From an uncultured Planctomycetia bacterium (GTDB lineage: Bacteria > Planctomycetota > UBA8108): a stretch of 64,000 nt of DNA. Below are positions 7,942-44,746 of the stretch, in pieces. The stretch is from contig CAZTRG010000149.1 of assembly GCA_964615885.1 (NCBI GenBank), positions 2,903-66,902 on the forward strand, written 5' to 3'. A model generated the notes under the pieces. That model made no database searches and was not told the DNA's origin. It saw nothing but the letters and a program-made list of their open reading frames with translations. The number at the start of each line of letters is the position of its first letter. Within the stretch, counting starts at the first letter, position 1. The translations under genes were made by a program, and so were the position numbers.

Positions 7942-8054
7942 TCTGTATCTCCATGAAATGTTGGGAAACGTCAGAATCTACCGAGAAACGCCCATGGAAT
8001 CCACTCTTAAAACGGCCCCGGGCGGACTCCGAAAGATTCTCGCACAGAAAAAAT

Positions 8055-8507
8055 TCAGACCTGGAAAGACTCCAGGTAAAGACGTTCAGCCCGTCTCATC
8101 TTTCTGCGTCCGGCAGCATCCTTGTCATCGTAGCCGAGAAGATGAAGAACCCCGTGGATGGCATAGAGAGCCAGCTCCACAGGGTAGTCAATTCCCCGGC
8201 TGCTGGCAGAGCTGCGGGCCGTATCCACCGATACAACCACCTCCCCGAGCAGGTCGTCATCGAGAGGATCGCCCTCCAGCGGCTTCCCCTCTGTACGCAT
8301 GGGAAACGTTACGACATCGGTGGCGTAATCATGGGAGAGATAATCCCGGTTGAGCTGCCTGATCTCGGCATCATCGACGAAGCAGACATGAACTCCCATA
8401 CAGGTCTCATGATCCTCAAGCAAGCGGATGAGAACCTCGCGCAGGGCGGCCTTCTGCTGCGCATCCAGGGGTCTCTTGCCAAGGAAGTCGATGGCCGGGC
8501 CGCTCAA
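8055..8507 (-). CDS. ybeY: Endoribonuclease YbeY (rRNA maturation factor)
   Basis: HGVLHLLGYDD zinc-binding motif, 150 aa. 4-nt overlap with the upstream HD gene. Confidence 0.85.
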   Translation of the reverse strand: MSGPAIDFLGKRPLDAQQKAALREVLIRLLEDHETCMGVHVCFVDDAEIRQLNRDYLSHDYATDVVTFPMRTEGKPLEGDPLDDDLLGEVVVSVDTARSSASSRGIDYPVELALYAIHGVLHLLGYDDKDAAGRRKMRRAERLYLESFQV

Positions 8508-10087
8508 GTGGCCTCCACCCTGGCTTCAGCATCCGATTCCGGGGGCGGCGATGACGCGCCGGTTTCTTCTACCTTGCTATCGTCCTCGAGCTCGGGGTAC
8601 TCGACCCGCCCGTGGTAAATATTGGTGAGCGTAGCCTCAAAGCTCTCCTCGATCCGGTAGAGATCCGCCATGGTGAGCTGGCATTCATCCAGCTGGCCGT
8701 CAAAGATCCGTTTTCGGATCATCTCCCTGGCAATCTCTCTGAACCTCGCCGGCGTTGGATCCTGGAGGCTCTTGGCAATGGCCTCCACTGAATCGGCAAG
8801 CATCAGGATTCCTGCTTCGGGGAAGGTGGGCTTCGGGCCCGGGTAGCGGTACTCCGTGTCCTCGGTGGAATTCTCCTCCTCCTCACCCTCCTCCTGGCGC
8901 GCCTTGTGATAGAAGAACTCGACGACCGTCGTGCCGTGATGCATTGGAATCATATCGATAATCTGCTGGGGAAGCTTCTCCTCGCTGGCGAGGATAATAC
9001 CCTCCTTCACATGCGACATGATGATGAGCTTGGACATCGATGGCCTCAGCTGGTCATGAATCGACTTGTCCTTGCCCATGTTCTCGGCGAAATACTCAGG
9101 CTTGTAGATCTTGCCGACATCGTGATACCAGGCCCCCGCATCCGCCAGCAGCACATTGCCCCCGATAGCCTCGGTTGCATCATGGGCGAGCTGCTGCACC
9201 CCGAGGGTGTGCTGGAAAGTCCCCGGTGCCCGCTCACGAAGAACGCGCAGGAGCTTGTTGTTCGGATCTGCCAGCTCGAGGAGCCTGCGCTCGGTCAGCA
9301 CCCCGAAGGCCACCTCTATCTGCGGAAGCAGGCTGGTAACAATACCACCTGAGATCAGGCCCCCGACCAGGGCAAGTCCCGGATCGAGCAGCCAGCCCCT
9401 GAGGTCAAGGTCGGCAATTGCAGGGGTCTCTATCGCCTTGAAACACAGAACGGCAATCGCCTGGACCAGTCCCGCCTTCAAGCCAACGAGAACCGGCCGT
9501 GACTGTTTGCGCACCTGCCTGACACCGAGCACCGAGGCAACGGCTCCAAGACTGAGGCTGATCGCCAGGACAAAGGGATTGAATCCCTGGTACAGCTCCG
9601 GCTGGGATGAAAGCAGGGTGGCCTGGTAAAGAAGTGCAAGGTAGGAAGCCACTCCTCCACACAGGAGAATCGCAACCATATTCCTGTAGGCCAGCCCGGC
9701 AATCATGGCCAGGGCCGGCAGCGGCAGCAGGAAGGGCGGCCAGTTGACCTCGAACATGCCCCAGGAGAGGCTGACGGTCAGCACGATGAGCAGGACGAAC
9801 TGGTTAAACTTAGCAGTCGACTGAAAAAGAGCCGTCTGGACCCGGTTGATAACCAGCACTCCCAGGGCTGTGACCATCACGAGGATCCCGGCAAAGCCTA
9901 CCTGCTCATGCAGGCTCTTTTTGCCGATGTTGAGTAAGAGGAGAAGAAGGAAGACCAGCACCGAGGTCACCACGAGCCGGAAGATCAGGTTCGCCTGGCG
10001 AGCGCTTTCTTTCAGGACGACCTCCTGCCCCTGCTGGCGGGACCTGAGGAACTCGTCGATTCTCTTGGCTTTTCGCTTCCTTGCCAT
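8504..10087 (-). CDS. 7TM-HD (HDIG) membrane phosphohydrolase, PgpH/YqfF-like
   Basis: N-terminal multi-TM region followed by an HD domain (HDVGKIYKPEYF, MIPMHHGT). Conserved phoH-HD-ybeY arrangement. Confidence 0.8.
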   Translation of the reverse strand: MARKRKAKRIDEFLRSRQQGQEVVLKESARQANLIFRLVVTSVLVFLLLLLLNIGKKSLHEQVGFAGILVMVTALGVLVINRVQTALFQSTAKFNQFVLLIVLTVSLSWGMFEVNWPPFLLPLPALAMIAGLAYRNMVAILLCGGVASYLALLYQATLLSSQPELYQGFNPFVLAISLSLGAVASVLGVRQVRKQSRPVLVGLKAGLVQAIAVLCFKAIETPAIADLDLRGWLLDPGLALVGGLISGGIVTSLLPQIEVAFGVLTERRLLELADPNNKLLRVLRERAPGTFQHTLGVQQLAHDATEAIGGNVLLADAGAWYHDVGKIYKPEYFAENMGKDKSIHDQLRPSMSKLIIMSHVKEGIILASEEKLPQQIIDMIPMHHGTTVVEFFYHKARQEEGEEEENSTEDTEYRYPGPKPTFPEAGILMLADSVEAIAKSLQDPTPARFREIAREMIRKRIFDGQLDECQLTMADLYRIEESFEATLTNIYHGRVEYPELEDDSKVEETGASSPPPESDAEARVEAT

Positions 10088-10140
10088 CTTTCTCTCAGCC
10101 CGCCTGGAAACAGCTTCCGGCCGCTTCCGGCAGAGCCCTT

Positions 10141-11136
10141 TTATTTGCCCCCGGGCCGGTTCTCATTGTCATGCTTTTCGTAGGCCTCAACGATTTTCTT
10201 TACCAGGGGGTGGCGCACGATATCCACCTTCTCGAGCTCAACCCAGCCGATCCCGGTAATGCCATCAACAATCGCCCCCGCATGCACCAGGCCTGAGAGC
10301 TGGTCCTCGGGCAGGTCAAACTGGGTCACGTCCCCGTTGGCGATGACCTTGGAGCCCATACCCAGGCGGGTGAGGAACATCTTCATCTGTGAGACCGTTG
10401 TGTTCTGTCCCTCGTCGAGAATGATAAACGCGTTGTTGAGGGTGCGGCCCCGCATATAAGCCAGGGGGATAATCTCAATGATCTCACGCTCAATGTAGCG
10501 CTTGACCTGTTCCATCCCCAGTACATCGTTGAGCGCATCATAAAGCGGCTGCAGGTAGGGATTGACCTTCGCCTGGAAATCGCCGGGCAGGAAGCCGAGC
10601 TTCTCCCCCGCCTCCACCGCCGGGCGGCAGAGAATGAGCTTCTGGTAGTCCCCTTCACGCAAGCCATCGACTGCCATGCGAACGGCCAGGTAGGTCTTGC
10701 CGGTACCGGCCGGCCCGATGCAGAAAACCATCTCGTTGCGCAGTATGGATTCTATGTATTTTTCCTGCCCCCCGGAGCGGGCGAGGTTCCTGACGGTCGC
10801 TCGCTCCTTCGAAGTCAGCTTTCTCTCTTTGCCCTGGCCGCTGGAAGCTTCCTCTTCTTCAGCTCCCTGGCTTTCAGCAGCGGCCCTCAGCCTGGCGATC
10901 CGGGACTCGACATACAGATCCGGCAGCTCGGCCCCCGCCCTGTAGATCTCGATCATGTCCTGCAGGAGCCTGTGGGCATGATGGACCGGTCCCTCTGCAC
11001 CCTCGAGGTGCACAACACCGCTTCGTGCAGCGACCTGGACCTCCAGGCCGTCACGAATCTCCCGCAGGTGGGCATCCCCCGCCCCGAAAATAAACATGGC
11101 CTCTTCCTGAGAAGCCACCTCGATAGCTAATTCCAT
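10141..11136 (-). CDS. phoH: PhoH-like ATPase
   Basis: Walker A GPAGTGKTYLAV, PhoH family conservation. Start trimmed to ATG at 11134-11136 (MELAIEV...) to avoid a 41-nt overlap with cdsA. The ORF-track start at 11187 is an alternative. Confidence 0.8.
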   Translation of the reverse strand: MELAIEVASQEEAMFIFGAGDAHLREIRDGLEVQVAARSGVVHLEGAEGPVHHAHRLLQDMIEIYRAGAELPDLYVESRIARLRAAAESQGAEEEEASSGQGKERKLTSKERATVRNLARSGGQEKYIESILRNEMVFCIGPAGTGKTYLAVRMAVDGLREGDYQKLILCRPAVEAGEKLGFLPGDFQAKVNPYLQPLYDALNDVLGMEQVKRYIEREIIEIIPLAYMRGRTLNNAFIILDEGQNTTVSQMKMFLTRLGMGSKVIANGDVTQFDLPEDQLSGLVHAGAIVDGITGIGWVELEKVDIVRHPLVKKIVEAYEKHDNENRPGGK

Positions 11137-11146
11137 GTAATGACCG

Positions 11147-12049
11147 TCAAGACCAGTAGTGGAGGAGGCACCAGAATACGAACCCACTGAAAATAAAGCT
11201 GTCGATCATGTCCAGAACCCCCCCGAACTCCGGCAGTAGAGACCCGGAATCCTTGACGCCGTAAATTCGTTTCAAGAGGGATTCGCTCAGATCACCGATA
11301 GCGGCACTGAAAGCGAGAATTATCCCAAAGCCAATTGCAGGTAGCCATCCAAATTTAAGATCCGCCACATAGCCTGAATCCGCAGCCAGGGCGAACCAGG
11401 CTCCAACCAGCACAAAACCCGCCAGGAAACCCTCTAAGGTCTTATTGGGGCTTACCTTAAGAAATTTAACACGGCCAATAGTCGAGCCCACAACGTAGCC
11501 ACCGATATCCGTCAGTTTCACTCCAAAAACAAAAACTGCCCCGGTCAGCACATCTTCTGACCTGCAGTAAATCCTGATCAAAAAAGAGAAAAACAAGCCG
11601 CAAAGAACAGCCCCCAGGACTGTGCTGGCAATCTTCCCGGCCCCATCGGCAAAATCACTGCGAAATAAAACCACCAGGAAGGACAGCAGCACCAGTGCAA
11701 AGACACCGGCGATCACCAGCTCCAGTTCCTGCTCACCGGCGCCGGGAACGAAACCTCCTGCCCCCCAGTCCCAGCAGGCCAGGGCGAGAAACCATGCGGT
11801 TGCCAGGAAGCCCGGCAGAGACTGCAGCGACAGCGATCTCCCGGTTGCCATCTTTGAATACTCGAGGTACCCCACCAGCCCCATGAGAACCAGTATGGCG
11901 GAGCCGGCCAGTCTTTGCTCCAGCCACGCATCGAGGGCCAGGACCCCGGCGACCAGCAGCACCAGGACAATCCCCAGAAGATAACGAACCTGTTTAGCGC
12001 CCAAGCAGTTCCCTCCCGGAGACCTCTCTCCCCGATGCCGCTCTGTCAT
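11147..12049 (-). CDS. cdsA: Phosphatidate cytidylyltransferase (CDP-diglyceride synthetase)
   Basis: Multi-TM protein with the CdsA C-terminal signature KRIYGVKDSGSLLPEFGGVLDMIDS. Confidence 0.8.
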   Translation of the reverse strand: MTERHRGERSPGGNCLGAKQVRYLLGIVLVLLVAGVLALDAWLEQRLAGSAILVLMGLVGYLEYSKMATGRSLSLQSLPGFLATAWFLALACWDWGAGGFVPGAGEQELELVIAGVFALVLLSFLVVLFRSDFADGAGKIASTVLGAVLCGLFFSFLIRIYCRSEDVLTGAVFVFGVKLTDIGGYVVGSTIGRVKFLKVSPNKTLEGFLAGFVLVGAWFALAADSGYVADLKFGWLPAIGFGIILAFSAAIGDLSESLLKRIYGVKDSGSLLPEFGGVLDMIDSFIFSGFVFWCLLHYWS

Positions 12050-33618: not shown

Positions 33619-33656
33619 CCCTGCCCGGCGGCTCATTGCCCGGGCAGGGGTTTTTT
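33619..33656 (+). terminator. Rho-independent terminator (hairpin CCCTGCCCGG / CCGGGCAGGG plus T6) between convergent genes
   Basis: 10-bp perfect stem 33619-33628 / 33640-33649 followed by TTTTTT 33651-33656. Abuts the stop codon of the minus-strand gene 33655..34209. Confidence 0.8.
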
Positions 33657-34209
33657 ATTTCGCAGGAGAACCGGATACCCCCCGGGCCTCCCAGATCACC
33701 TCGGCCCGCAAGACACGGCCGGTCACTGGCAGGCCCTTGTCGACCTCCTCGTCAAGAATCACGGCCTGCGCGCAAACCCCCGGCGGAAGAAAGCCGGCCT
33801 TGAGCGGCAACTTCCCGGGAGCTTCTGCCAGGTCCTCCCGGCTCCAGGCCAGGACGATTCCTCCGTGTGAACCGGGCCCCCTGACCCTGACTCTCCGGCT
33901 GGAGATCCTGCTGACTGCGATACCGGTCCAGACCAGGGGAGGAGACAGGTCTCCCGCAAACAGGGCTGCCAGGCCCAGCTCGTTGACCCCGACAGCTGCC
34001 TTCGTGCCAAGCAAGGCCTCCGCCTCCGCAAGGGCCTCTGCACAGCGGACCTTTTCACCCTGCTCACCCCCCATCCGCCCATGGAGCCCATCGACCATTC
34101 CCTGGGCCAGCTGCAGGCAGCCCTCCAGGGCCTCTCCGCCGCCGGGCCGCCAGGCAGCAGGAAGCTGCCCGGCAATCATGAGCTGATCAGAGCTTTCCGT
34201 CCGCCTCAT
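33655..34209 (-). CDS. Phage P2 gpI-like / TssG-like baseplate wedge protein (CIS component)
   Basis: 184 aa, immediately downstream of and overlapping (ATGA) the gpJ-like gene. Weak similarity to tail protein I (LLP..., ...GT.aAv motifs). Assignment mostly by conserved J-I gene order. Confidence 0.4.
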   Translation of the reverse strand: MRRTESSDQLMIAGQLPAAWRPGGGEALEGCLQLAQGMVDGLHGRMGGEQGEKVRCAEALAEAEALLGTKAAVGVNELGLAALFAGDLSPPLVWTGIAVSRISSRRVRVRGPGSHGGIVLAWSREDLAEAPGKLPLKAGFLPPGVCAQAVILDEEVDKGLPVTGRVLRAEVIWEARGVSGSPAK

Positions 34210-36542
34210 GAGTGGCTCCTGTCTTCGACTGCAGGTTCATCGACCACCTGCTCACACTCAATTTCAACGCCCTCAAGAACACCCACAGCGATGGGAAGGT
34301 CAAGGGCAACGGCAGAATCCAGCGATGATTCCACCCGCAACGTGAACCCGGCTTGCCCGCCGGCCTCACGGAGGATTTCTCCTGCAACAGCACGAACCTG
34401 CTCGCCCCCTAGCTCTGTCACCAGGGGGCACCCCTTCCCTGCTCTTCCACCGCTAAGGGGGTCCAGGTAGCTCTGCAGGCAGGAGGCGAGCCGCTCTCCC
34501 AACCGGGAGACGTCCCGGGCTGCCTCCCCGCTGCGGTCTGTCACACCGAGGTAAACCTTGAAGGGAATCCGCATGGGCTCGACGACCTGGACAACCGTTC
34601 CAAGAGGGACCCTTCGCTGCAGGTAACGCTGCAGCGCTCCCAGGCGCCGGGCTCCCAGTGGCTCAAAACAGGACCCGGCATCAGCCTGCGCAAGGACTGC
34701 TCCCCAGGCAACGACCCAGACCTCCGATGGGCGAAGCGGATGCGCAACGACCTCTATCCTCGAAAGCGATGGATCAAGCTTGCGCAGCAGCCTGTCATAA
34801 TCAGCTCCGCTGACCAGCGTCCCACCGTCGGACTGTTCGGCTGCGAGCCGGCGGTAGAAATGGGCTCCGTTCTCACCCTCCGATCCATCCAGGACCGGAA
34901 CCGGCTGCGAAATGCGCTCGAGACCTTCCACCTCCAGCTCGAGAACATCCAGGCTGTCACGAGGCATGCTCCCTGCCCGGCCGATCCCTGTCCGCAAGCC
35001 CTCGATGCTGGCCTTCACCGGCCCATCGAGAGCCATCCCTGCTATCACCTCTACCTCACCACCGGATTTTCTGCGCAGGCAAAAGCCCTCCGGACCGGGG
35101 GCACCCGTGCCCTCCTCCAGCCTGAGAGTTTTCCAGCCACCTTCGAGGGACAGCTGCAGAGAATCAAAGGGCTCGAAATCGCCTTCCGGATGAGGCGGCA
35201 GCTCCGCCACCGAGCTCCTGAACTGGAGGCTTGCAGGCTGGCTTCCGACCCTGCGGCCCTCGACCACCTCAACTGCACCGGGAACCAGTGTCCTGACCAG
35301 TGCCGGGCTGAAATAGAAGCCGCTGGACCAGCAGGCCCGCACCCAGTAAAGGTCCCTGCCGAAGAGTCTCCTGCGACTCCAGCCCTGCGGCGCCTGCCAG
35401 GATACCGTTCCACTTCCTGTAAAGGCCCGGGTGCCATCGGCCACCTCCAGCTCCCGGAAGGAGTCCTCACAGGAAAACTCCCATTCCAGCCCCGGCCGTC
35501 CGTTCTCCAGGCCGGCCCCGATTCCACCTGAGAGCCAGTACAGGCTGGCCGGCTGCGGTTGATCCCAACCAAGATAGACTGCCGGTGAGTGGCGCTGTGA
35601 CATCGTCCCCAGCTCAAGACCGCCATCGCCAGAGAAGGAATGATCCTGCCACGAATCTCCCGAATGGATGAAAAGGCGCGCAGGGGGACGATCGACAAGC
35701 TTCTTCTGTTTTGATTTCCTGTCTCGCCTCAGGAGCCAGACCACCGTTGGAGTTGCCAGCGAAACAGGGGCTCTCCTGGGCAGTCGAAGACGGATCCATG
35801 GAGAGTCGAAGCCCTCGATCTCGCGGCTTGTCATATCCGGCAGGGGACCATGGATTCTCATGCGCAGCAGGGGTTCGCCTGCGATATTGCAGCTCTGGCT
35901 GAAATCAACCGGCAGCAGCCTCCAGCCGGCACCGCAGGAATACTCCCATTCGCCTTCCAGCACCGCCTGCGGCGTACCCGGCCACTCGAGTACCAGCTCG
36001 GCCTTGTGGCGCCTGAGCTGATCCCACTCGGCATCGCCGAGATAGAGATGATGGTGGAGCCGGTCAGAGCCGAAGAGCCTGACAGGAGCTTCCCCTTCTC
36101 CATCGACGGGAAGCTGCCGGGCCAGGTCTCCCTCGAGCACCACTGCATGCTCCAGGCGGGCCGTGGAAACCCAGCCATCCGCTGCTGTCTCAAAGTAGAC
36201 CCGTCCCTCCGCAGCTGTCTTGCGGGAGGCGGTTAGAGCTGTTGCCGCCGGAACCTTTACGGCCCCCTGCAGCCCTTCGCCCGGATGGAATTTGACCGCC
36301 GAGCTTGCGGCAAGCGGCCAGGAGGGCTCGTGACCGAGCTCCGCCAGCAGGCGTGGCAGGATACGCCCGGTACTTTCAGCCAGCTCACCCTCCAGGCGGG
36401 CAAGCACAACAGCAAAGCTCTCCAGCACGGCCCGGGCAGGATCCCCGGGTCCCCGGGCCGCCCAGTCCGGAATGCGTGCAGCAGCAGCCCTCTCGAGCTC
36501 CCGAAGAGCTTCCCGTTCCCGGCCGTCCTGGGGGTCCTGCAT
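34206..36542 (-). CDS. Baseplate J-like protein (P2 gpJ / T4 gp6 / TssF-like) of a contractile injection system
   Basis: N-terminal Baseplate_J-like region (DPARAVLESFAVVLARLEGEL..., FETAADGWVSTARL). Size 778-790 aa typical for Afp11/Pvc11-like proteins. Start ambiguous: GTG 36578 (ORF track), ATG 36566, or ATG 36542 (chosen, GGTGGAG RBS, no overlap with gp25). Confidence 0.7.
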   Translation of the reverse strand: MQDPQDGREREALRELERAAAARIPDWAARGPGDPARAVLESFAVVLARLEGELAESTGRILPRLLAELGHEPSWPLAASSAVKFHPGEGLQGAVKVPAATALTASRKTAAEGRVYFETAADGWVSTARLEHAVVLEGDLARQLPVDGEGEAPVRLFGSDRLHHHLYLGDAEWDQLRRHKAELVLEWPGTPQAVLEGEWEYSCGAGWRLLPVDFSQSCNIAGEPLLRMRIHGPLPDMTSREIEGFDSPWIRLRLPRRAPVSLATPTVVWLLRRDRKSKQKKLVDRPPARLFIHSGDSWQDHSFSGDGGLELGTMSQRHSPAVYLGWDQPQPASLYWLSGGIGAGLENGRPGLEWEFSCEDSFRELEVADGTRAFTGSGTVSWQAPQGWSRRRLFGRDLYWVRACWSSGFYFSPALVRTLVPGAVEVVEGRRVGSQPASLQFRSSVAELPPHPEGDFEPFDSLQLSLEGGWKTLRLEEGTGAPGPEGFCLRRKSGGEVEVIAGMALDGPVKASIEGLRTGIGRAGSMPRDSLDVLELEVEGLERISQPVPVLDGSEGENGAHFYRRLAAEQSDGGTLVSGADYDRLLRKLDPSLSRIEVVAHPLRPSEVWVVAWGAVLAQADAGSCFEPLGARRLGALQRYLQRRVPLGTVVQVVEPMRIPFKVYLGVTDRSGEAARDVSRLGERLASCLQSYLDPLSGGRAGKGCPLVTELGGEQVRAVAGEILREAGGQAGFTLRVESSLDSAVALDLPIAVGVLEGVEIECEQVVDEPAVEDRSHS

Positions 36543-36555
36543 ATTCTCCACCGAT

Positions 36556-36918
36556 TCAGCGCACATTGTTTTTCTCACCCTGGAGGCTGAAGGTTAAATT
36601 CATCAAGCCCCCCCCGCCCTCCAGGCTCACCTGGATTTTCCCGTCCCCGGCAGCCAGTATTTTCACCCGGCGAACTCCGGCCCAGGGGGCCCACTCACCC
36701 AGGGCCTCTTCAATAAAAACCGCGGCGAGCTGCCGCTCATGCTGTGTTTCAATTTTCCCCATGCTGTGTACCCGGCACCCGAAGGAAGGCAGCAGCGGAC
36801 GCTCTCCAGGCTGAACCTCAAGAATAAGCCGCAACCTCTCTTCCACCAGCCGGCCGTCTGCTTCCAGCTCCCGGGTCCCTGCGAAGAAGGCGTCCACGGT
36901 CTCAACCCTGCCGACCAT
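36556..36918 (-). CDS. gp25/GPW-like baseplate wedge protein (TssE/Afp9-like)
   Basis: MVGRVETVD...ILEVQPGERPLLPSFGCRVHS...IEEALGEWAP matches the GPW_gp25 signature. ATG at 36916-36918 with AGGGAGGTG RBS. The longer ORF-track N-terminus (to 37383) overlaps the hub gene in another frame and is artefactual. Confidence 0.8.
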   Translation of the reverse strand: MVGRVETVDAFFAGTRELEADGRLVEERLRLILEVQPGERPLLPSFGCRVHSMGKIETQHERQLAAVFIEEALGEWAPWAGVRRVKILAAGDGKIQVSLEGGGGLMNLTFSLQGEKNNVR

Positions 36919-37792
36919 CTTCACCTCCCTTCCAGCGCTCAAGATCGACACCGTTTTCGAGATAATCAACCCGGGTGCGGTAACCGAGCCTGTCCCAGCA
37001 ATGCCGCGCCCTGGCCACCCTGTAGCGCCCCACAGCCAGGCGACCCCGGCCCACGATGTCAAACTCCTGCAGCGGAAGCCAGCCGGGATCTCCGGCGAGC
37101 TCGAAGAAGCCGCCCTTACCCCGTGATGAATGCTCCTCGATGACAAATTCAAGCACACGGTCATCTGCGTACAGCACTCCTGCACAGGGGGGCAGGCCGG
37201 GAACATCGGCTCCAGCCGGCAAGCTCGCAGAGAAGTAGAGCCTGCCGGCGGTAACCGCAAGCTCATACCCGATCGCCCTCGCCCGCTGTCGCAGGAATTC
37301 CAGCCTTTCACCCGGGCATTCAACCAGCTCGAGGACCTCCGTGGTTGGCTCGACAGCCGGCTGCAGCCCCAGCTCACGGGCAAACATACCGGCCAGCTCC
37401 GAATCGCAGTGGTGGTAAAAAGTCTGCGGCTCGTGGAGAAGGGATGCTTCCCGCTGGTGGCAATGAGCCCTCAGCAATCCCACCGTTCCAGCACGGTCCC
37501 GCTTCAGTCCGCGGTCACGAATCCGGCCGCGGAAGAGGGGACCGGACGGCAACTCGATGACCAGCTCAGCGCCGGGAACCAGGGAGTCGAGCACCTCCTC
37601 CACTCCCGGAGAGGCGCCGTCGGCGGCAAATAAGATCTCCAGGTGGTCAAAGCCGTCGGCCTGGAGAAAAACCTCGCAGCCCAGGAGCGTCGTCCCGGAG
37701 GGGAGAACAGAGCAAACCGGCAGCTGCTGCTGGCCTGGAGCCAGCTGCAATCCGGAGGAGCTGGTTGGATAAACCCGTGTTTTCTCGATCAT
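36902..37792 (-). CDS. Phage late-control gpD / gp27-like baseplate hub protein (short, no recognisable gp5-like spike extension)
   Basis: 296 aa. C-terminal GRYRVARARHCWDRLGYRTRVDY fits the VgrG/gpD hub motif (GxYxVxxVxHxxxxxxYxNxF). Position between tube genes and gp25 is as in eCIS/P2. Confidence 0.55.
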   Translation of the reverse strand: MIEKTRVYPTSSSGLQLAPGQQQLPVCSVLPSGTTLLGCEVFLQADGFDHLEILFAADGASPGVEEVLDSLVPGAELVIELPSGPLFRGRIRDRGLKRDRAGTVGLLRAHCHQREASLLHEPQTFYHHCDSELAGMFARELGLQPAVEPTTEVLELVECPGERLEFLRQRARAIGYELAVTAGRLYFSASLPAGADVPGLPPCAGVLYADDRVLEFVIEEHSSRGKGGFFELAGDPGWLPLQEFDIVGRGRLAVGRYRVARARHCWDRLGYRTRVDYLENGVDLERWKGGEDGRQG

Positions 37793-37820
37793 GCGCTCAG
37801 CCCATCTGCTCTCGGCCTGT

Positions 37821-38234
37821 TCATCCTCTCATCTCCAGTCGAACCAGGCCGCGAACAGGAGTTCCATCGGGGTCGAAACGAACCCAGTCCTCCTCGATCC
37901 GGTCGATATAGCCTGTAAACCGAAAAGGTCCCCAGAGAAAAACGACCTTCGCAGGAGGGCCGCCCGGCGATTGCGGATCCATCCAGCCTTCGAGCTTCTC
38001 GGCAATCTCGCGCAGGTTCCGCTCATCCAGCGGACGACGGGTCGAGTCGAGGAAGAGCTCGGTTGAAAAACGTTCTTCGCAAGCACCGCTCAGCGCGGCC
38101 TGCATGCCCGCCGGGGCAAGCTGGTTTTTCTTCGAGAGTGAATACTTGGCCGGGTTCCAGTCAACCGTCACGGTCTCCATGCTGCCGAGATCGGTCAGCT
38201 CCGCCTTGACCAGTCCGTTCAGTTTTTCTTCCAT
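37821..38234 (-). CDS. Hypothetical CIS-associated protein (between tube and hub genes)
   Basis: 137 aa, overlaps the tube gene by 16 nt. Conserved-looking C-terminus VVFLWGPFRFTGYIDRIEEDWVRFDPDGTPVRGLVRLE. No family assigned. Confidence 0.35.
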   Translation of the reverse strand: MEEKLNGLVKAELTDLGSMETVTVDWNPAKYSLSKKNQLAPAGMQAALSGACEERFSTELFLDSTRRPLDERNLREIAEKLEGWMDPQSPGGPPAKVVFLWGPFRFTGYIDRIEEDWVRFDPDGTPVRGLVRLEMRG

Positions 38235-38638
38235 CTTAATCCTTCGTAGACGATCTCCAGTTTTTCGAGCGCGATCTCCGGGTCCCGTGCATCCAGTGGT
38301 GGGCCTTTCCAGCTGACCGCCAGGGCGCTGTGAAAACTCCAGCGCATGCTCTCCTTGCCATCCTCATCGAGGAGCACAACGGCGCCGCTGCGCGGCAGTG
38401 CATCCTGGTACCAGTTCCAGAGCTCCGCATCGCGGGTCAGGCCACGCTCGAGCACCAGCCTTCCTGTCGAGGGGCCATCCTCAAAGAACTCGACCCTGTC
38501 GGAGCCGCCTTCGCGGTACTCCAGGACCTCGCGACTGCTCTCGAGTCCCGAGCAGCTGACAAAACCAGCCGTCGAAACCCCCTCGAGCTCGAGATCAAAG
38601 CGATCACCTCTCAGCAATTCCTTCAGCAGCACTCTCAT
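38219..38638 (-). CDS. Contractile-system tube protein, T4 gp19 / Hcp-like (Afp5/tube-initiator-like)
   Basis: FDLELEGVSTAGFVSCSGLESSREVLEYREGG...GRLVLERGLTRDAELWNW matches the conserved phage-tail-region tube signature. GGGAGA RBS. Confidence 0.8.
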   Translation of the reverse strand: MRVLLKELLRGDRFDLELEGVSTAGFVSCSGLESSREVLEYREGGSDRVEFFEDGPSTGRLVLERGLTRDAELWNWYQDALPRSGAVVLLDEDGKESMRWSFHSALAVSWKGPPLDARDPEIALEKLEIVYEGLRWKKN

Positions 38639-38665
38639 GCCTGGAATCTCCCTGTGCGAAAAGCT

Positions 38666-39175
38666 TTATTCACCGGCAACCTCTCCATCGCTGACCCGCT
38701 CCAGCCTCTCGACTACCAGCTCCAGGGTCTCAATACTGATTTCTTCTCCGCTTATATCCAGCAGGGGCCCCTCGTAACGGCAAGGCCAGGCAGCGTAAAA
38801 GTTCCACCTGGCCGTCTCTCTCAGGGCCGCATCCAGCAGCACGATCGAGCCGTTGCGGAGATCCTCTTCCCCCTCCTCAATACCTTTGCGCCAGAGGTAA
38901 AATGCATCGGAGGTCGTAACTCCCCTCTTGAGGAGGATATTGCCGTAGACGGCCCGCCCGGGAATCTGCATTGCTGTTGCCTGGTTACCTACCCTGTACT
39001 CCAGCACCTCTGAACGGGAAACCAGCCCGCTCACTTCACGAAAACTTCCGGCAAGGTCTCCGCCGCCTTCTCCAAGGCCATCGACCTCGACGAGAAAATT
39101 GCAGTTGGCGGTCAATTCGAAGGCCTGCCGCGACTGCTTCGGTTCAAGTTGTGTCCCTGGTTTCCTGATGACCAT
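38666..39175 (-). CDS. Contractile-system tube protein, T4 gp19 / Hcp-like (Afp1-like)
   Basis: FLVEVDGL...GSFREVSGLVSRSEVLEYRVGN...YGNILLKRGVTTSDAFYLWR matches the tube signature. Start codon overlaps the stop of the upstream gene (ATGA). Confidence 0.85.
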   Translation of the reverse strand: MVIRKPGTQLEPKQSRQAFELTANCNFLVEVDGLGEGGGDLAGSFREVSGLVSRSEVLEYRVGNQATAMQIPGRAVYGNILLKRGVTTSDAFYLWRKGIEEGEEDLRNGSIVLLDAALRETARWNFYAAWPCRYEGPLLDISGEEISIETLELVVERLERVSDGEVAGE

Positions 39176-40143
39176 CAGCTTACCGACTCCTCCAGGACAG
39201 CGCTGCCGGCAGGAAGAAGCTGTTCCACCTCGACCCCATCGCAGGTATCCATTCGCGTCCGAACAGCGATGGACAATCTGCGCTCAAAGCCCTCTGCCCC
39301 ATCCTCCGGGTCACCCACCAGCGACACCTTCAGCTCAAACCCCTTTCGAAAGGGCAGGAATCCATCGACGGCCAGGCTGTGAAGGAAAGCCCTCACCTCC
39401 CGCTCAAGCTTCCGCAGAAGAACCTCTGAGGCGTACTCGAATACTGTCCAGCGAGTCCCTGTCTCCAGTGAACGGCGAAGCCCCTGGCGGCGGCGCCAGG
39501 TCACCAGGGCACGCAGCTCATCGGGGAAGGGAAGAAGGTCTCCCTCCCCTCCGATCCCGCTGCGAATCGCCAGGCTTGACCTCTGGAGTGCAGAGGGTGT
39601 TCGAAGGGGGAAAAAGTCCCTGGCCTCCAGGCAGCCGGCAAGGCAGGCCGCCGAAGGTTTCCCGGGAACCTTTGCCTCCAGGACAGCCAGGTTAGGCAGC
39701 GGTCTCCGCAGGCAGGCTCCAGGCTCTCCACCAGCCTGCTGCCCGCTTCCTCCCACCACCTGGCAGCACAGCAGCAGCATTGGATGCTGCAATGCAAAAT
39801 CTTCAAGTAAGCCGGTTGCCTCGGGCCTCACCGGCGGCAGGACCACCGTACCGACCTCATCCCTGCCGGCCAGCTCGTACAAACCGGAGCACTCCCCGGG
39901 GGCTCCCGGCTCACCAAGCAGCTGCGAGAGGGCCTCCTCGTCAAGCACTCCATCCCTGTATCCGGCTTCGGTGGAGAGAGAGAGGGGCTCCAGGAGAAGC
40001 TCCAGCCCGCCTCCGCCGGTAAAGTCCTCCACCAGGGCTTTCTCCTGCGCAGCTGTTTCTTCCAGGCCCGGAGCTCTCAGCAGGACCATGGCAGTCTTGC
40101 CGCAGCCAGTCCAGGTCAGAGAACCCTGATGAGAAATCGACAT
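39175..40143 (-). CDS. Putative contractile sheath protein (short, about 322 aa)
   Basis: ATG at 40141-40143 with GGGGAGGAG RBS, 4 nt after the cap-gene stop. Position cap-X-tube-tube as in eCIS loci. C-terminus WTVFEYASEVLLRKLEREVRAFLHSLAVDGFL...FELKVSLVGD resembles the sheath C-terminal domain pattern (W.vFE...FL..L..G.L....F.v.cd). The first 106 codons of the ORF-track model are an out-of-frame overlap artefact. Confidence 0.45.
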   Translation of the reverse strand: MSISHQGSLTWTGCGKTAMVLLRAPGLEETAAQEKALVEDFTGGGGLELLLEPLSLSTEAGYRDGVLDEEALSQLLGEPGAPGECSGLYELAGRDEVGTVVLPPVRPEATGLLEDFALQHPMLLLCCQVVGGSGQQAGGEPGACLRRPLPNLAVLEAKVPGKPSAACLAGCLEARDFFPLRTPSALQRSSLAIRSGIGGEGDLLPFPDELRALVTWRRRQGLRRSLETGTRWTVFEYASEVLLRKLEREVRAFLHSLAVDGFLPFRKGFELKVSLVGDPEDGAEGFERRLSIAVRTRMDTCDGVEVEQLLPAGSAVLEESVS

Positions 40144-40147
40144 AATT

Positions 40148-40765
40148 TTACTCCTCCCCTTGCTTGAGAACCCGCTCGAGGCGAACCTCTCTTTCAAGAA
40201 CCCTCTCCACTGTCTTGTAGTTTTGCGAGACCACCGGCAATGACACCTCGAAGCTGATCCCGAGGTGATGACGGGGAAGTCCCAGCTCCCGCCAGGCATC
40301 CCTGTCTTCGACGATCTCAACAGGAAGCTCAGCCATCTCGAGGCCCACCTCCTTGCCCAGGAACTCCTCCATCTCCCCCACCGGCAACAACGCGATGGAA
40401 TGAAGAAGCTGAAGCACCGCCTCGACTGAGCCCATCTCCTCCTGGGGAGTCGCCTCCACAATCATGAAAACGTAGCGCAGGCTGACCCAGAGGGCTCCAC
40501 CGCGGCTGCGGCCCGGCAGCCCGGCCTCCTGCGCCGGCTGCATCCGGGCTCCGGCCTGCCGGTACCTGGCAGCGGGAGAAACCCGCTGCAGGTAGAGAAC
40601 CCCCCTGGCCCCGTATTCGACATCATCCCCTGCTCCCCGGGGCGGAAGATCAATCGGATGACAGAGATAGACAGGAATCTCCTGCTGTTGAGCCGTTCCA
40701 CGAACCGCCTCCTCAAGGCGAATCGCCAGGTAACGGCTCAGATCGTAGAAATCCCCTGGCCTCAT
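40148..40765 (-). CDS. DUF4255-like protein (putative tail terminator/cap, Afp16/Pvc16-like)
   Basis: 205 aa, immediately upstream of the sheath candidate. Weak motif similarity (IPVYLCHPIDLPP..., GVLYLQRVSP versus the DUF4255 N-terminal/LFLYDIRE pattern). Confidence 0.45.
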   Translation of the reverse strand: MRPGDFYDLSRYLAIRLEEAVRGTAQQQEIPVYLCHPIDLPPRGAGDDVEYGARGVLYLQRVSPAARYRQAGARMQPAQEAGLPGRSRGGALWVSLRYVFMIVEATPQEEMGSVEAVLQLLHSIALLPVGEMEEFLGKEVGLEMAELPVEIVEDRDAWRELGLPRHHLGISFEVSLPVVSQNYKTVERVLEREVRLERVLKQGEE

Positions 40766-40831
40766 GGAATTAACCTCCCTCCCCGGGAGCCCATGCAGGG
40801 CCTCTCACTGGAATACCACGCTGCTGTTGGT

Positions 40832-41329
40832 TCAGCCCGAATCATTCTCAATACCCATCCCTTGTCGCCTGCTCATTGCTCCATCCATGTACTCATCAAC
40901 AAGAGCATGGATCGAGGTGAATGAAAAATTACCTGTCCGTCCTTCCCCACCGGCCGCCTTGCGGATCGGCACGTAGCTACCATCCCTGCACGCTACCCCG
41001 AGAAGCTCCACCGCTTCTTCAGAACCGCTTCCCAGGAGCTCAGTGGCAGCCACCGCACCGTGGAGACTGTTGTGAAAACGAAAGCTCCCCCGGGGAGTTT
41101 CGATCACGAATTCCAGCCCATCCAGCAACCGGGAGCCGGGAGCCTGCACCTCGTCGGCCTCTGCAGGATCCGCCACGGCACCTCTTGTCCTGAAGGCCAA
41201 CTCAAGATTCCTGAAAAAACGTCCAAGCGCCTGGGCGTGCCCCCGCGGAACACCCGGCTCCAGGACGGAATGGTTTCTCCCCGCAGGAACCGAAAAGGCC
41301 TTCGCTATGGTTGGCCGAAGAGCTCTCAT
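40832..41329 (-). CDS. Hypothetical protein in CIS operon
   Basis: 165-aa ORF between the FHA gene and the cap candidate, same strand, short intergenic gaps. No family recognised. Confidence 0.35.
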   Translation of the reverse strand: MRALRPTIAKAFSVPAGRNHSVLEPGVPRGHAQALGRFFRNLELAFRTRGAVADPAEADEVQAPGSRLLDGLEFVIETPRGSFRFHNSLHGAVAATELLGSGSEEAVELLGVACRDGSYVPIRKAAGGEGRTGNFSFTSIHALVDEYMDGAMSRRQGMGIENDSG

Positions 41330-41360
41330 TCTCTACACTGTCCTTCTCGATTGCATTGCT

Positions 41361-43094
41361 TCACGGCACAGCTCTCCCACCACCATCGACCAGCGCGGCT
41401 CCCCCTGCCCCCTCCAGGAGCAGGCGGGCTCCCAGGTCCTCCAGGAGAGCCTCCTTCTCCAGCAATCGCTGCCTCACATCGTCTGCATATTTCCTCAGCA
41501 GGACCAGCTCTTCTGAACGACTTGATTCGCTGTCGCGGAGGCCATCGAGCTGCGCTTCCTGGTCCCGGCGCTTTTTCTCGGCAGCCACCAGGCGCCCCTG
41601 CAGAAGCTCGATCTCGCGCTGGAGGCGTTTTTCTGCTTTCTCTCTTTCGCGGCCGTAGAAGGCAAGCTCCCGGTTCACCTTCCTGTACTTTTCCTCGCTC
41701 CGGGCAAGTGCAGCCGCCTGGGTATCCATCGTCTGCTGAAGCTCCGTGGTACCCGAGCTGAGCAGCTCCAGCTCTTTTTCAATCTCCCCGCAACGCAGCC
41801 TGCACCCGGCACCGTCGGTCCGCTCCTGCTCAAGCTCTTCCTGCATGCGCAGGGCCGATTGCCTGCCGCTATCGGACTCCGCAAGGGCTTCTGCAAGCTG
41901 GGCCGCCTGTTTTTCAAGCTCGGCCCGGCTGCCCTTCAGCTCTGCCGTCATTCGTTCTTTCTCAGCCTGCAGGCTCTTGATGTTCTTCCGGTAGGCGCTG
42001 CTGAGGTCCTGCTCGGTCTCCTCCAGGCGTTTACGATTCTCTTCCTCCTGGCTGGCAAGCTCACTGCGATGATGGTGGGAATCCTGCTTCCTTTCAGCCA
42101 GGAGCGAATCAAGCTCACTGCGAAGACCGGCGAGCTCTGCACGAAGACCGATGGTGATCTCACGTTCCTTCTCGAGCTCGCCAGCGCTCGACTCAAGGCG
42201 GCGGTTCAGCTCAGCCTGGCCCGATACTGATTCAGTAAGCTTGCCTGTTTCTTCAAGCAAGAGACTGCTCACATCTGCCTGCCCTGCCTCTGCCTCACCC
42301 AGCTTCACCTGCAGATCCTGGACCTCCTGCTGCGCTACCTCTGCCTCACCCAGCTTCACCTGTAGATCCTGGACCTCCTGCTGCGCTGCCTGCAGAGATT
42401 CCATGGAATCAGCGAGCTGCTGCTGGTGATTCTCCGCCTGCTCGGCCAGCTCCGACTGAACCGCCTCCAGCTCTTTCTGCAGCTTGCCGTCCCGCGCCCG
42501 AGGCCTCCCTGGCTCTGCAGGCTGTCCTGCCTCGACCCTGGAAAGCTCATCCCTGGCTTCCTCCAGCTGGCTCTCCAGCCGGCCCCTGGCAGCCATGACG
42601 CTTTTCAGGCCGGCCACCAGCCGCTTCTTCTGGTCCAGGCGCTGGGCAAGCTTCTGGCTGAGCTCCTCGTTCTGCCGGGTCAGCCGCGCCCGGGCCTTCT
42701 CAAGCTCGACCTTCTTGGCCTCCGCAGCCTTCGCACGCCTCAGCAAGGCCCGGTCGGCCCCCGAAGCGCCTGGAGAGCTGCCTCCCGCACTCCCGGTATC
42801 AGGAATCACCGACAACCTTGTACCCCCGACCCGCAGAAGATCACCTGTTCGAAGACTTGCACGATCGACCGGCCGCTCATTCAGGAAGGTACCCCTGGAG
42901 CTCCCCAGGTCTTCGACCACCACCTCATCGCCCTCCTTCTGGAGGCGGGCGTGGCTTGGAGAAACCAGGGAATCGCTGATACACAGCTCACATTCACCGG
43001 CGCTGCCGATATCGATGGAATCCCGCAGAGGAAAGACCTTTCCTCTAAACTCTCCATTCAATACCCGCAGCATGAAACCTTCAGAGACTTTCAT
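41361..43094 (-). CDS. FHA-domain protein with about 450-aa coiled-coil C-terminal region
   Basis: N-terminal FHA (GKVFPLRDSIDIGSAGECELCISDSLVSPSHARL...GSSRGTFLNERPV). The remainder is heptad-rich, Glu/Leu/Gln/Arg-rich coiled coil with an in-frame 51-bp tandem duplication. First gene of the minus-strand CIS block. Confidence 0.8.
   Translation of the reverse strand: MKVSEGFMLRVLNGEFRGKVFPLRDSIDIGSAGECELCISDSLVSPSHARLQKEGDEVVVEDLGSSRGTFLNERPVDRASLRTGDLLRVGGTRLSVIPDTGSAGGSSPGASGADRALLRRAKAAEAKKVELEKARARLTRQNEELSQKLAQRLDQKKRLVAGLKSVMAARGRLESQLEEARDELSRVEAGQPAEPGRPRARDGKLQKELEAVQSELAEQAENHQQQLADSMESLQAAQQEVQDLQVKLGEAEVAQQEVQDLQVKLGEAEAGQADVSSLLLEETGKLTESVSGQAELNRRLESSAGELEKEREITIGLRAELAGLRSELDSLLAERKQDSHHHRSELASQEEENRKRLEETEQDLSSAYRKNIKSLQAEKERMTAELKGSRAELEKQAAQLAEALAESDSGRQSALRMQEELEQERTDGAGCRLRCGEIEKELELLSSGTTELQQTMDTQAAALARSEEKYRKVNRELAFYGREREKAEKRLQREIELLQGRLVAAEKKRRDQEAQLDGLRDSESSRSEELVLLRKYADDVRQRLLEKEALLEDLGARLLLEGAGGAALVDGGGRAVP
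42287..42388 (-). repeat. In-frame 51-bp tandem duplication (2 copies, 2 mismatches) inside the FHA/coiled-coil gene
   Basis: Copy 1 at 42287-42337 and copy 2 at 42338-42388 (cctctgcctcacccagcttcacctg[c/t]agatcctggacctcctgctgcgct[a/g]c). Encodes AQQEVQDLQVKLGEAE twice. Confidence 0.85.
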
Positions 43095-43123: not shown

Positions 43124-43855
43124 TTGAATCTTCACTTCAATTTTTCACCGGGGCTGACCCGGCAGGGGATTCAGGCCTGCAGTTTAGCGTTTAGCCGCCT
43201 GGGATGGAAGTTTGAAACTGCCCCCACAGAGCCTTCAACAAAGCCCCACACCCCGTTTGCCACCCGGCAGGGAACGGTATATAACCCACCTGTGAATCCG
43301 CAACAGACTAGCACCCCGGTTCATTGCCCCAACTGCGGACACCCCGTAGACCGCCAACCCATCCATTGCACCGTCTGCGGATATCAAAGCCAGTCGGTTA
43401 AAGAGTACTTCTGGATGTATCTCGGCGGCGGCGTGCTGATCCTGCTGGGGGCACTTCATGTGGTGCTTGGAACACTCTCACAGGACTCCAGGCAGGACCA
43501 TTGGAGCCGTTTATTTTCAGGCTGGTATCCCCTGGGGCCCTGGCCTGCAGATTCAAACTGGTTCGCGATTGTGCTCCTTGGGATCGCACTGACCCTGATT
43601 GGACTGGGCTTCACCAGGCACTTCAAATCGTCTTTTTACGCAGGAATCGTTCTTTTCGGCTGGCAAATTTTATGCGCCGGAAAAAAACTCCTCTCAGGCT
43701 CCCCTGAAAACACAGCCCGTTTCACTGTCTTATCTGCACTGATCCTTGAAGTCCTTTTACTGCTATTGGTTATACGGATAGGTATGGCTCTCAAAAGGAC
43801 ACCCGGGAGAGAAATCGACCGCCTCCAGAGAGGGCCTCAAAAAGCTGAAGAATAG
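43124..43855 (+). CDS. Zn-ribbon-containing integral membrane protein (about 4 TM helices)
   Basis: CPNCGHPV...CTVCGY zinc ribbon followed by hydrophobic helices (YLGGGVLILLGALHVVLG, FAIVLLGIALTLIGLGF, etc.). Divergent from the CIS operon. True start uncertain (could be internal). Confidence 0.45.
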   Translation: MNLHFNFSPGLTRQGIQACSLAFSRLGWKFETAPTEPSTKPHTPFATRQGTVYNPPVNPQQTSTPVHCPNCGHPVDRQPIHCTVCGYQSQSVKEYFWMYLGGGVLILLGALHVVLGTLSQDSRQDHWSRLFSGWYPLGPWPADSNWFAIVLLGIALTLIGLGFTRHFKSSFYAGIVLFGWQILCAGKKLLSGSPENTARFTVLSALILEVLLLLLVIRIGMALKRTPGREIDRLQRGPQKAEE

Positions 43856-44145
43856 CAAAAAACGCCTTCTGGAAGTGGTTTGAGGGCATTTCTGAATATT
43901 CACCTGTTGACTATATCCGGGTTTTCAGGTATTCAAGCTTCCCGTAATGTTGAACGGAAAGCCCTGAGAGCGTTTCTCAGAGCGTTTTAGAGGTTTTGGT
44001 GAATTCCGGATCCTGCTTTCTCTCTTTCTCAGAGGAGCTGCTTCAGAGCCTGTCAGATTGGTGATTACAGGCTTGAAGAGTTGCTTTGAGGCCGAAGGAA
44101 GGGCAAATCAGGAAATTGACCAGCAGAACAGGAGGAAGTAAAGAG

Positions 44146-44352
44146 ATGTTCGAAGATGCCCCAGCGGCGGCAGCCAGCAAAGAAACCCTGGTAGTCGGCA
44201 GCAAAGTGAAAGCATACGTCAAGTCACAGGATATGATGTCATCCGGTGAGCTTATTGGTGCCCTCAGTGACAAGGTCCACGAACTGCTTGATGCGGCCAT
44301 TGCCCGCACCAAGGCCAACAAGCGCTCAACGGTAAAGGCCAGCGATCTCTGA
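44146..44352 (+). CDS. Small histone-fold protein (DUF1931-like; candidate bacterial histone-like DNA-binding protein)
   Basis: ATG at 44146 with strong AGGAGGAAG RBS 8 nt upstream. 68 aa, MFEDAPAAAASKETLVVGSKVKAYVKSQDMMSSGELIGALSDKVHELLDAAIARTKANKRSTVKASDL, with lysine-rich helix-strand-helix layout like DUF1931/histone-fold proteins. Followed by a terminator. Confidence 0.55.
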   Translation: MFEDAPAAAASKETLVVGSKVKAYVKSQDMMSSGELIGALSDKVHELLDAAIARTKANKRSTVKASDL

Positions 44353-44376
44353 TCAGCTGCTCTTTATGAAGTGAAA

Positions 44377-44417
44377 AGAGCGAAGATGGATAGCGATTCC
44401 GTCTTCGCTCTTTTTTT
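44377..44417 (+). terminator. Rho-independent terminator after the histone-fold gene
   Basis: Stem AGAGCGAAGA (44377-44386) / TCTTCGCTCT (44402-44411) followed by T7. Confidence 0.8.
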
Positions 44418-44482
44418 CTGTCACAGCAGAAAGAGGCCGCTTCCCGGCAAGTCAGCCCGGAAAGCTGAATACAGGAAACAGG

Positions 44483-44746
44483 TTGATGGAAAATGAAACC
44501 CTCGAGATCCGGGTTCTCTTCTTTGCCCTGGCCCAGGAGCTTGCAGGTGAAAGTTCCATTCAACTCTCCCTCTCGGCTCCCGCCACTGCCGGTGATGCCG
44601 AGGCGGCCCTGAAAAAACGCTACGAATGGCTCGGTGAAAAGCTCTCTTCCTACAGGATCGCTGTAGACGAGGAGTTCGGCCAGGGGGACACCCCGCTGCG
44701 CAACGGCTCGGAGCTGGCCATCATCCCCCCGGTGAGTGGAGGCTGA
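44483..44746 (+). CDS. moaD: Molybdopterin synthase sulfur-carrier subunit
   Basis: 87 aa ending in ...PPVSGG (C-terminal Gly-Gly). ThiS/MoaD fold pattern. Confidence 0.8.
   Translation: MMENETLEIRVLFFALAQELAGESSIQLSLSAPATAGDAEAALKKRYEWLGEKLSSYRIAVDEEFGQGDTPLRNGSELAIIPPVSGG

Follow-up and report, generated by a model that had tools for sequence, protein, structure and literature searches.

The 68-residue protein encoded at positions 44146..44352 on the forward strand of the window, the 64-kb stretch of planctomycete DNA analysed here, very probably belongs to the face-to-face (FtF) alpha3-truncated histones, as judged from its fold and signature residues, and its oligomeric state would be that of this class. 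The gene was characterized through its ORF, a phmmer search of the PDB, an AF2 model with Foldseek comparison, and dN/dS values. Its top PDB match is HLp of Leptospira perolatii (9QT0; E 1.5e-15, with 49% identity across 61 residues). Crystallography, SEC-MALS, tethered-particle motion and heterologous expression in E. coli have shown HLp to be a stable tetramer around which ~60 bp of DNA is wrapped without sequence specificity (PMC12701072), and its heterologous expression compacts the nucleoid. The planctomycete protein is likely an orthologue-level relative of HLp that would assemble as a tetramer, wrap DNA non-specifically and serve a role in the nucleoid. Weaker phmmer matches were obtained with HBb of Bdellovibrio bacteriovorus (8CMP/8FVX; E ~2e-4) and with the archaeal FtF histone HTkC (9F2C; E 1.3e-3).

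Fold and Family Membership

The AF2 model, a single chain built from an alignment of 71 sequences, has a pLDDT of 76; the core scores 80-87, and residues 1-9 are disordered. An acidic, disordered Ala/Pro tail (residues 1-13) precedes alpha1 (18-27), L1 (28-33), an alpha2 of 24 residues (34-57), L2, which holds R60-S-T62, and a one-turn alpha3 (65-67). A helix-strand-helix topology had been predicted originally; the model instead presents a helix, a loop, a long helix, a second loop and one helical turn, which together constitute a truncated histone fold. Structure prediction had been proposed as a check on the histone fold, and such a fold is what the model shows, Foldseek superposing it on 9QT0_A with a target-normalised TM of 0.94 and an rmsd of 0.8 A over 56 residues. 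HTkC ranked next, followed by HBb (TM 0.81-0.85), while eukaryotic, NF-Y-type and nucleosomal histone folds appeared only at E > 0.1, the nucleosomal ones with TM values of ~0.5-0.6. Pfam returned sub-threshold matches only (DUF5805, 16.9 bits; CBFD_NFYB_HMF, 14.4; DUF1931, 12.8) and a search of NCBIfam matched zero families, and hence the family assignment rests on the sequence and fold matches in the PDB together with the signature residues.

The alpha3 histones are defined by an alpha3 of 3-4 residues and a shortened alpha2, and the FtF histones by a torus-like tetramer and a signature consisting of K16 in alpha1, R48 and N52 at the dimer-dimer contact, and the RxTxxxxD motif formed by R54, T56 and D61 (PMC11390915). 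Both the truncated alpha3 and the short alpha2 are present in the AF2 model, and the profile positions K16/R48/N52/R54/T56/D61 fall with exact spacing on K20/R54/N58/R60/T62/D67 of the query, these being six of only seven invariant columns among the 71 aligned sequences. The dimer-dimer pair R54 and N58 (R49 and N53 of HLp) is found in 71/71 sequences. Within the RD clamp, R60-S61-T62-V-K-A-S-D67, the Arg, Thr and Asp never vary, and 57 of the 71 sequences have Ser at position 61, giving the RxTxxxxD motif of FtF histones with no conserved basic residue after the Arg. The alpha1 lysine and the bacterial S-K motif are represented by S19-K20, with K20 invariant and K22 and K26 kept as K/R. Of the 25 HLp residues listed for dimer, tetramer or DNA contacts (PMC12701072), the query matches 20, either exactly or by a conservative replacement. 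The one clear difference in the tetramer network is the replacement of S52 of HLp by A57; planctomycete homologues nearly all have Ala or Gly here. With the HLp sequence match, the superposition of the model, and the conservation of DNA-contact and oligomerisation residues, the identification of the protein as a histone-fold protein and candidate bacterial histone was upheld.

The original prediction also likened the protein to DUF1931, and here a correction is required. The DUF1931 proteins of Aquifex aeolicus (aq_328, 1R4V) and Thermus (1WWI) share the histone-fold superfamily and a database label with the query; they are, however, doublets with a profile length of 138, described as pseudodimers without DNA-binding residues (PMC12701072, PMC11390915), and they lack the nucleosome-type residues as well. 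The query scored 12.8 bits against the PF09123 cut-off of 21.8, aligning with profile positions 24-53 of 138 only, and it is a 68-residue singlet with one fold that retains both RxTxxxxD and the alpha1 lysines. Strict membership in DUF1931 was consequently rejected on the sub-threshold score, the singlet form and the retained DNA-binding residues. The label nevertheless survives through its use by annotation pipelines and in the PDB: 'DUF1931 domain-containing protein' is the name given to HLp in its PDB entry and, by NCBI, to haloarchaeal relatives. Membership among the nucleosomal histones (PF00808) is equally unsupported, given a score of 14.4 against 21.4 bits and an alpha3 of a single turn as opposed to the full-length helix of ~10 residues that forms the four-helix-bundle interface.

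Gene Boundaries and Expression Signals

According to the ORF list and translation, the gene runs on the + strand from an ATG at 44146 to a TGA at 44350-44352, the exact coordinates given in the original prediction, and its product is MFEDAPAAAASKETLVVGSKVKAYVKSQDMMSSGELIGALSDKVHELLDAAIARTKANKRSTVKASDL. An 88-residue version starting at TTG-44086 in the mechanical ORF list was considered and rejected: three relatives carry in-frame stops within the extension and the alignment contains frame-shifting indels, which identifies the ATG as the start. Pairwise comparison with seven relatives gave dN/dS values of 0.06-0.16, indicative of purifying selection.

A Shine-Dalgarno sequence, AGGAGG, is located on the + strand at 44130-44135, 10 nt 5' of the ATG. 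The hexamer by itself is unexceptional, occurring 105 times in the window against an expectation of 75 +/- 9. It lies, however, inside a 20-nt block (44128-44148; CAGGAGGAAGT(A/T)AAGAGATG) that does not vary among 8 genomes, in contrast to the leader immediately 5' of it, and this renders the hexamer credible as a ribosome-binding site (RBS), in agreement with the earlier claim. The clean terminator that had been noted 3' of the gene was likewise corroborated. RNA folding, conservation and a match in a terminator scan identify an intrinsic terminator at 44373..44419 (+ strand), with an 18-bp stem (arms 44373-44390 and 44398-44415), a 7-nt loop and a U-tract following the second arm. The fold has a predicted energy of -29.5 kcal/mol (z = -4.46), none of 200 shuffled sequences was equally stable, and all 8 relatives keep the stem, in which one GC->AU change is compensatory, whereas the loop varies. 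As a separate observation, the 5' A-tract of the terminator mirrors its 3' U-tract (GAAAAGAGCG...CGCUCUUUUUUU), a symmetric arrangement expected of a terminator able to act bidirectionally; the next gene 3' of it, encoding MoaD, is on the same strand as the histone gene.

The ATG start, the dN/dS values, the conserved RBS block and the conserved terminator together establish the gene as real, under selection and bordered by the signals of an independent transcription unit. Such a monocistronic arrangement, in which RBS and terminator serve the histone gene alone, is consistent with a protein that may be abundant and nucleoid-associated, and the RBS block and terminator signals suggest high expression of the histone. 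HLp is likewise encoded by a single-gene unit, and both genes have a short start defined by the Shine-Dalgarno sequence and a longer, mis-annotated N-terminal variant.

Farther upstream, an alignment of the relatives suggested a candidate promoter at 43907..43935 (+ strand), composed of TTGACT (43907-43912), a 17-nt spacer and TATTCA (43930-43935). Its -35 box is invariant among the relatives, the assignment of the -10 box is weak, and nothing reached threshold in a scan for consensus promoters, this candidate included; its designation as a promoter is thus a guess from conservation. The candidate forms part of a region of ~110 nt (about 43895-44005) which the alignments show to be nearly invariant in 8 genomes, with histone identities among them of only 74-86%. 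Its remainder, a non-coding block at 43936..44005 (+ strand), lies between the candidate promoter and the much more variable leader on its 3' side. Besides a TTGAC box, the region has a U-rich tail and two hairpins by prediction (CTTCCCGT..ACGGAAAG and GCCCTGAGA..TCTCAGAGC). It could represent a promoter together with an element of the 5' leader, or else a distinct small RNA of ~65 nt. Rfam recognized no family within 43600-44600, the only match being at chance level and below gathering (lncRNA SOX2OT, E 0.036). A covariation check found zero compensatory pairs in the block, which is too conserved for such a check to be informative.

Charge and the Acidic N-Terminal Tail

The description of the protein as basic and lysine-rich held only in part. 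With 8 K and 2 R against 9 D/E, it is weakly basic, having a net charge of merely +1 and a pI of 8.0. The fold core has a net charge of +3 and a pI of 9.5, compared to +2 and 9.1 for the core of HLp, and it is the acidic N-terminal tail that lowers the overall charge to +1. This tail is Ala/Pro-rich and conserved (MFE[DE]xPAA..., net -2 to -5) and is unique to the clade of the window, most planctomycete homologues beginning instead with MAKKK... and carrying Lys-rich tails of net +2 to +11. The phmmer alignment shows that HLp also lacks a Lys-rich tail, and hence the acidic tail is regarded as a variation and not as a break with the family. On sequence grounds, it could lower or modulate DNA affinity relative to the Lys-tailed planctomycete homologues.

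The low net charge and the clade-unique tail do invite the proposal that the histone fold has drifted from a chromatin role, and that the protein binds DNA at low abundance or conditionally, or serves as a module for protein-protein interaction, with the tail masking the DNA surface. In its favor, Schwab et al. caution that prokaryotic histone-fold proteins need not all organise genomes (PMC11390915). It is nonetheless unlikely for this protein: the core is as basic as that of HLp, which itself does without a Lys-rich tail, all DNA-contact positions are retained, and the strong purifying selection, invariant RBS and strong terminator suit a highly used gene. A further possibility, equally doubtful, is that of a regulated FtF histone in this deep-sea clade, the tail acting as an intramolecular DNA mimic that would gate wrapping and the conserved upstream block (~150-250 nt 5' of the gene) as a leader or small RNA that would control dosage.

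Predicted Oligomerisation and DNA Binding

The preferred reading, a tetrameric histone of the HLp type, leads to a mechanism modelled on HLp. Two monomers would associate through their crossed alpha2 helices to form a head-to-tail histone-fold dimer, and two such dimers would then join face to face into a closed tetramer, with the C-terminus of alpha2, L2 and the single-turn alpha3 at the interface and R54, N58 and R60 taking part. Non-specific contacts with the phosphates of the DNA backbone would be provided by the N-terminus and lysines of alpha1 (G18-S19-K20, K22 and K26) and by the 'beta-bridge' of L1 and L2 (S32, G34, S61 and T62). DNA would wrap around the tetramer (~60 bp in HLp), which may thereby act as a nucleoid-associated protein.

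The interface residues predict an FtF homotetramer. The query and HLp (9QT0-9QT2; Hu et al. 2025, PMC12701072), which has an orthologue in L. interrogans, share a length class and the truncated fold, and are the same at the R/N/R tetramer residues, the RD clamp, the S-K motif and the alpha1 lysines. They differ in the Ala that replaces S52, in the longer, more acidic and Ala/Pro-rich N-terminal tail of the query, and in phylum, HLp belonging to the Spirochaetota. The archaeal FtF histones, HTkC (9F2C) among them (Schwab et al. 2024, PMC11390915), have the same truncated fold and the same K/R/N/RxTxxxxD residues, and a torus-like tetramer is expected of them too. The similarity of HTkC to the query is much lower, with 38-41% identity in structural alignment, and its host is an archaeon in which it occurs alongside nucleosomal histones.

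Against the tetramer so predicted, a dimeric histone like HBb, which would bend DNA in the manner of HU/IHF in place of wrapping it as a tetramer, has to be weighed. HBb (Bd0055; 8CMP, 8FVX, 9EZZ), a bacterial nucleoid protein which bends DNA or coats it end-on without wrapping, shares with the query the alpha3-truncated singlet fold, the S-K motif and the RD clamp; its match is significant in both sequence and fold, and dimer histones are also found in Planctomycetota (PMC11390915). The bacterial dimer histones, however, are characterized by the absence of R48 and N52 and by RKT in L2 (PMC11390915), HBb having Ser/Asp in place of R54/N58 of the query and RKT in place of its RST. In the query, both residues that the dimer subfamily lacks by definition are present and invariant, the L2 motif is RST, and the match to tetrameric HLp is better by eleven orders of magnitude, so that an HBb-like dimer is improbable.

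Gene Neighborhood

The 3' side of the histone gene is occupied by genes for a MoaD/ThiS-like protein, MoaE, a UDG-family glycosylase, a PQQ-like beta-propeller protein and NAD synthetase. On its 5' side is a conserved ORF for a Zn-ribbon membrane protein and beyond this, on the opposite strand, the genes for an FHA/coiled-coil protein and a contractile injection system (CIS). HLp is differently placed, its neighbors being SMC, Met-aminopeptidase and DUF350. The phage-tail-like CIS cluster (33655-43094, - strand) encodes a baseplate J/TssF-like protein of 790 residues, gp25, CIS_tube, two T4 gp19-type tube proteins and Pvc16_N, and it ends in the gene for the 577-residue protein with FHA and long coiled-coil regions; no sheath gene was recognized among the ORFs scanned. 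The FHA/coiled-coil gene contains a 51-bp tandem repeat (42279-42391, - strand; 2.2 copies, 93% match) that encodes a duplicated unit of 17 residues, QQEVQDLQVKLGEAE.... On a marine contig with an identical histone (L002), the FHA protein has 560 residues compared to the 577 of the window, a difference of exactly one 17-residue unit, which suggests that the copy number of the repeat varies between populations.

The Zn-ribbon ORF (43124-43855, + strand) encodes several hydrophobic segments and has a putative TTG start in the window. On eight related contigs, it was left uncalled by gene callers, giving the appearance of an 'intergenic' gap of ~1 kb. Its protein is conserved at 51-80% identity across the clade, and so it is probably a real, under-annotated gene.

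The histone gene lies ~1 kb from the last gene of the CIS cluster, and the gene order is identical in every member of the immediate clade. Protein identities within the clade are 40-58% for the CIS-side genes, 74-81% for the histone and 79-87% for the core genes on its other side. The placement of the histone at the edge of an accessory block is therefore accurate insofar as the gene adjoins a fast-evolving CIS cluster; the conserved gene order and greater divergence of the CIS-side genes indicate, however, that the block is shared by the whole clade instead of being particular to a strain, and nothing points to the histone as part of it. Functional linkage of the histone to its neighbors was rejected, as the synteny is confined to the immediate clade. 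Although adjacency to the CIS is kept throughout that clade, a cargo or regulator of the CIS, or a phage-type alpha3 histone on a mobile block, is largely refuted and most improbable, given that the histone gene is divergent from the CIS genes and separated from them by the conserved Zn-ribbon gene, that the CIS genes evolve far faster than either the histone or the core genes, that the neighborhood of the histone is a different one, free of CIS genes, in 70 other planctomycete genomes, that a phage collection yielded no homologue and that GC content is uniform. Neither a paralogue of the histone nor an HU-like gene was found within the window by tblastn, the HU query being E. coli HupA.

In these 70 other genomes, the histone resides in a completely different conserved neighborhood, as seen from loci of other Planctomycetota (L019-L092, about 6200-12000 in each locus). 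A glycogen-metabolism set is directly 3' of, and co-oriented with, the FtF histone in 61/70 of these species-level genomes, and includes a GT4/GT5 glycogen-synthase-like enzyme, a GH57 enzyme (56/70) and a GDE-type debranching enzyme (45/70). The 5' side presents a divergently oriented gene for a DUF2007 protein in 51 of the 70 and a small Arg-rich protein in 42. The clade of the window has lost, or never had, this arrangement, and a functional link is not evident.

Distribution and Significance

A protein search returned 103 homologues, the few named ones being from Planctomycetota or Brocadiales metagenome-assembled genomes (MAGs) and many from marine surveys. At least 491 relatives are encoded in a scan of one genome per species; the best 80 of these 491 are almost all from Planctomycetota, namely Phycisphaerae, Sedimentisphaerales and MAGs labelled Pirellulales, and the closest of the 80 is from a 3000-m ocean MAG (86% identity). 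Contigs with an identical histone protein come from marine metagenomes, identical contigs being present in ERR868417, SAMN05991717 and SAMN05991696, and the closest MAGs include JAYGDV01 and DCKY01/UBA1662. A phage collection contained zero homologues of the histone, and plasmids gave distant, weak haloarchaeal matches only. Planctomycete-type FtF histones (64-68% identity to the query) are also encoded by L063, labelled Nitrospira sp., and L071, labelled Candidatus Aegiribacteria; their occurrence outside the phylum could reflect mis-binning or horizontal transfer.

The Planctomycetota are among the main bacterial phyla with FtF histones (PMC12701072, PMC11390915), and with the phylum already named in these papers of 2024 and 2025, an FtF histone in a planctomycete was to be expected. 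No experimental study of any planctomycete histone, be it of expression, proteomics or DNA binding, was found in the literature searched. That bacterial histones are real chromatin proteins was demonstrated only in 2023-2025, and for Bdellovibrio and Leptospira alone. The Planctomycetota, for their part, are known for unusually condensed nucleoids. The gene described here adds a further uncultured marine lineage to those in which this known family occurs, neither creating a new category nor overturning anything, and is a clean candidate: short, with a defined start, in possession of all signature residues, and a natural tail variant for comparison with its Lys-tailed homologues.
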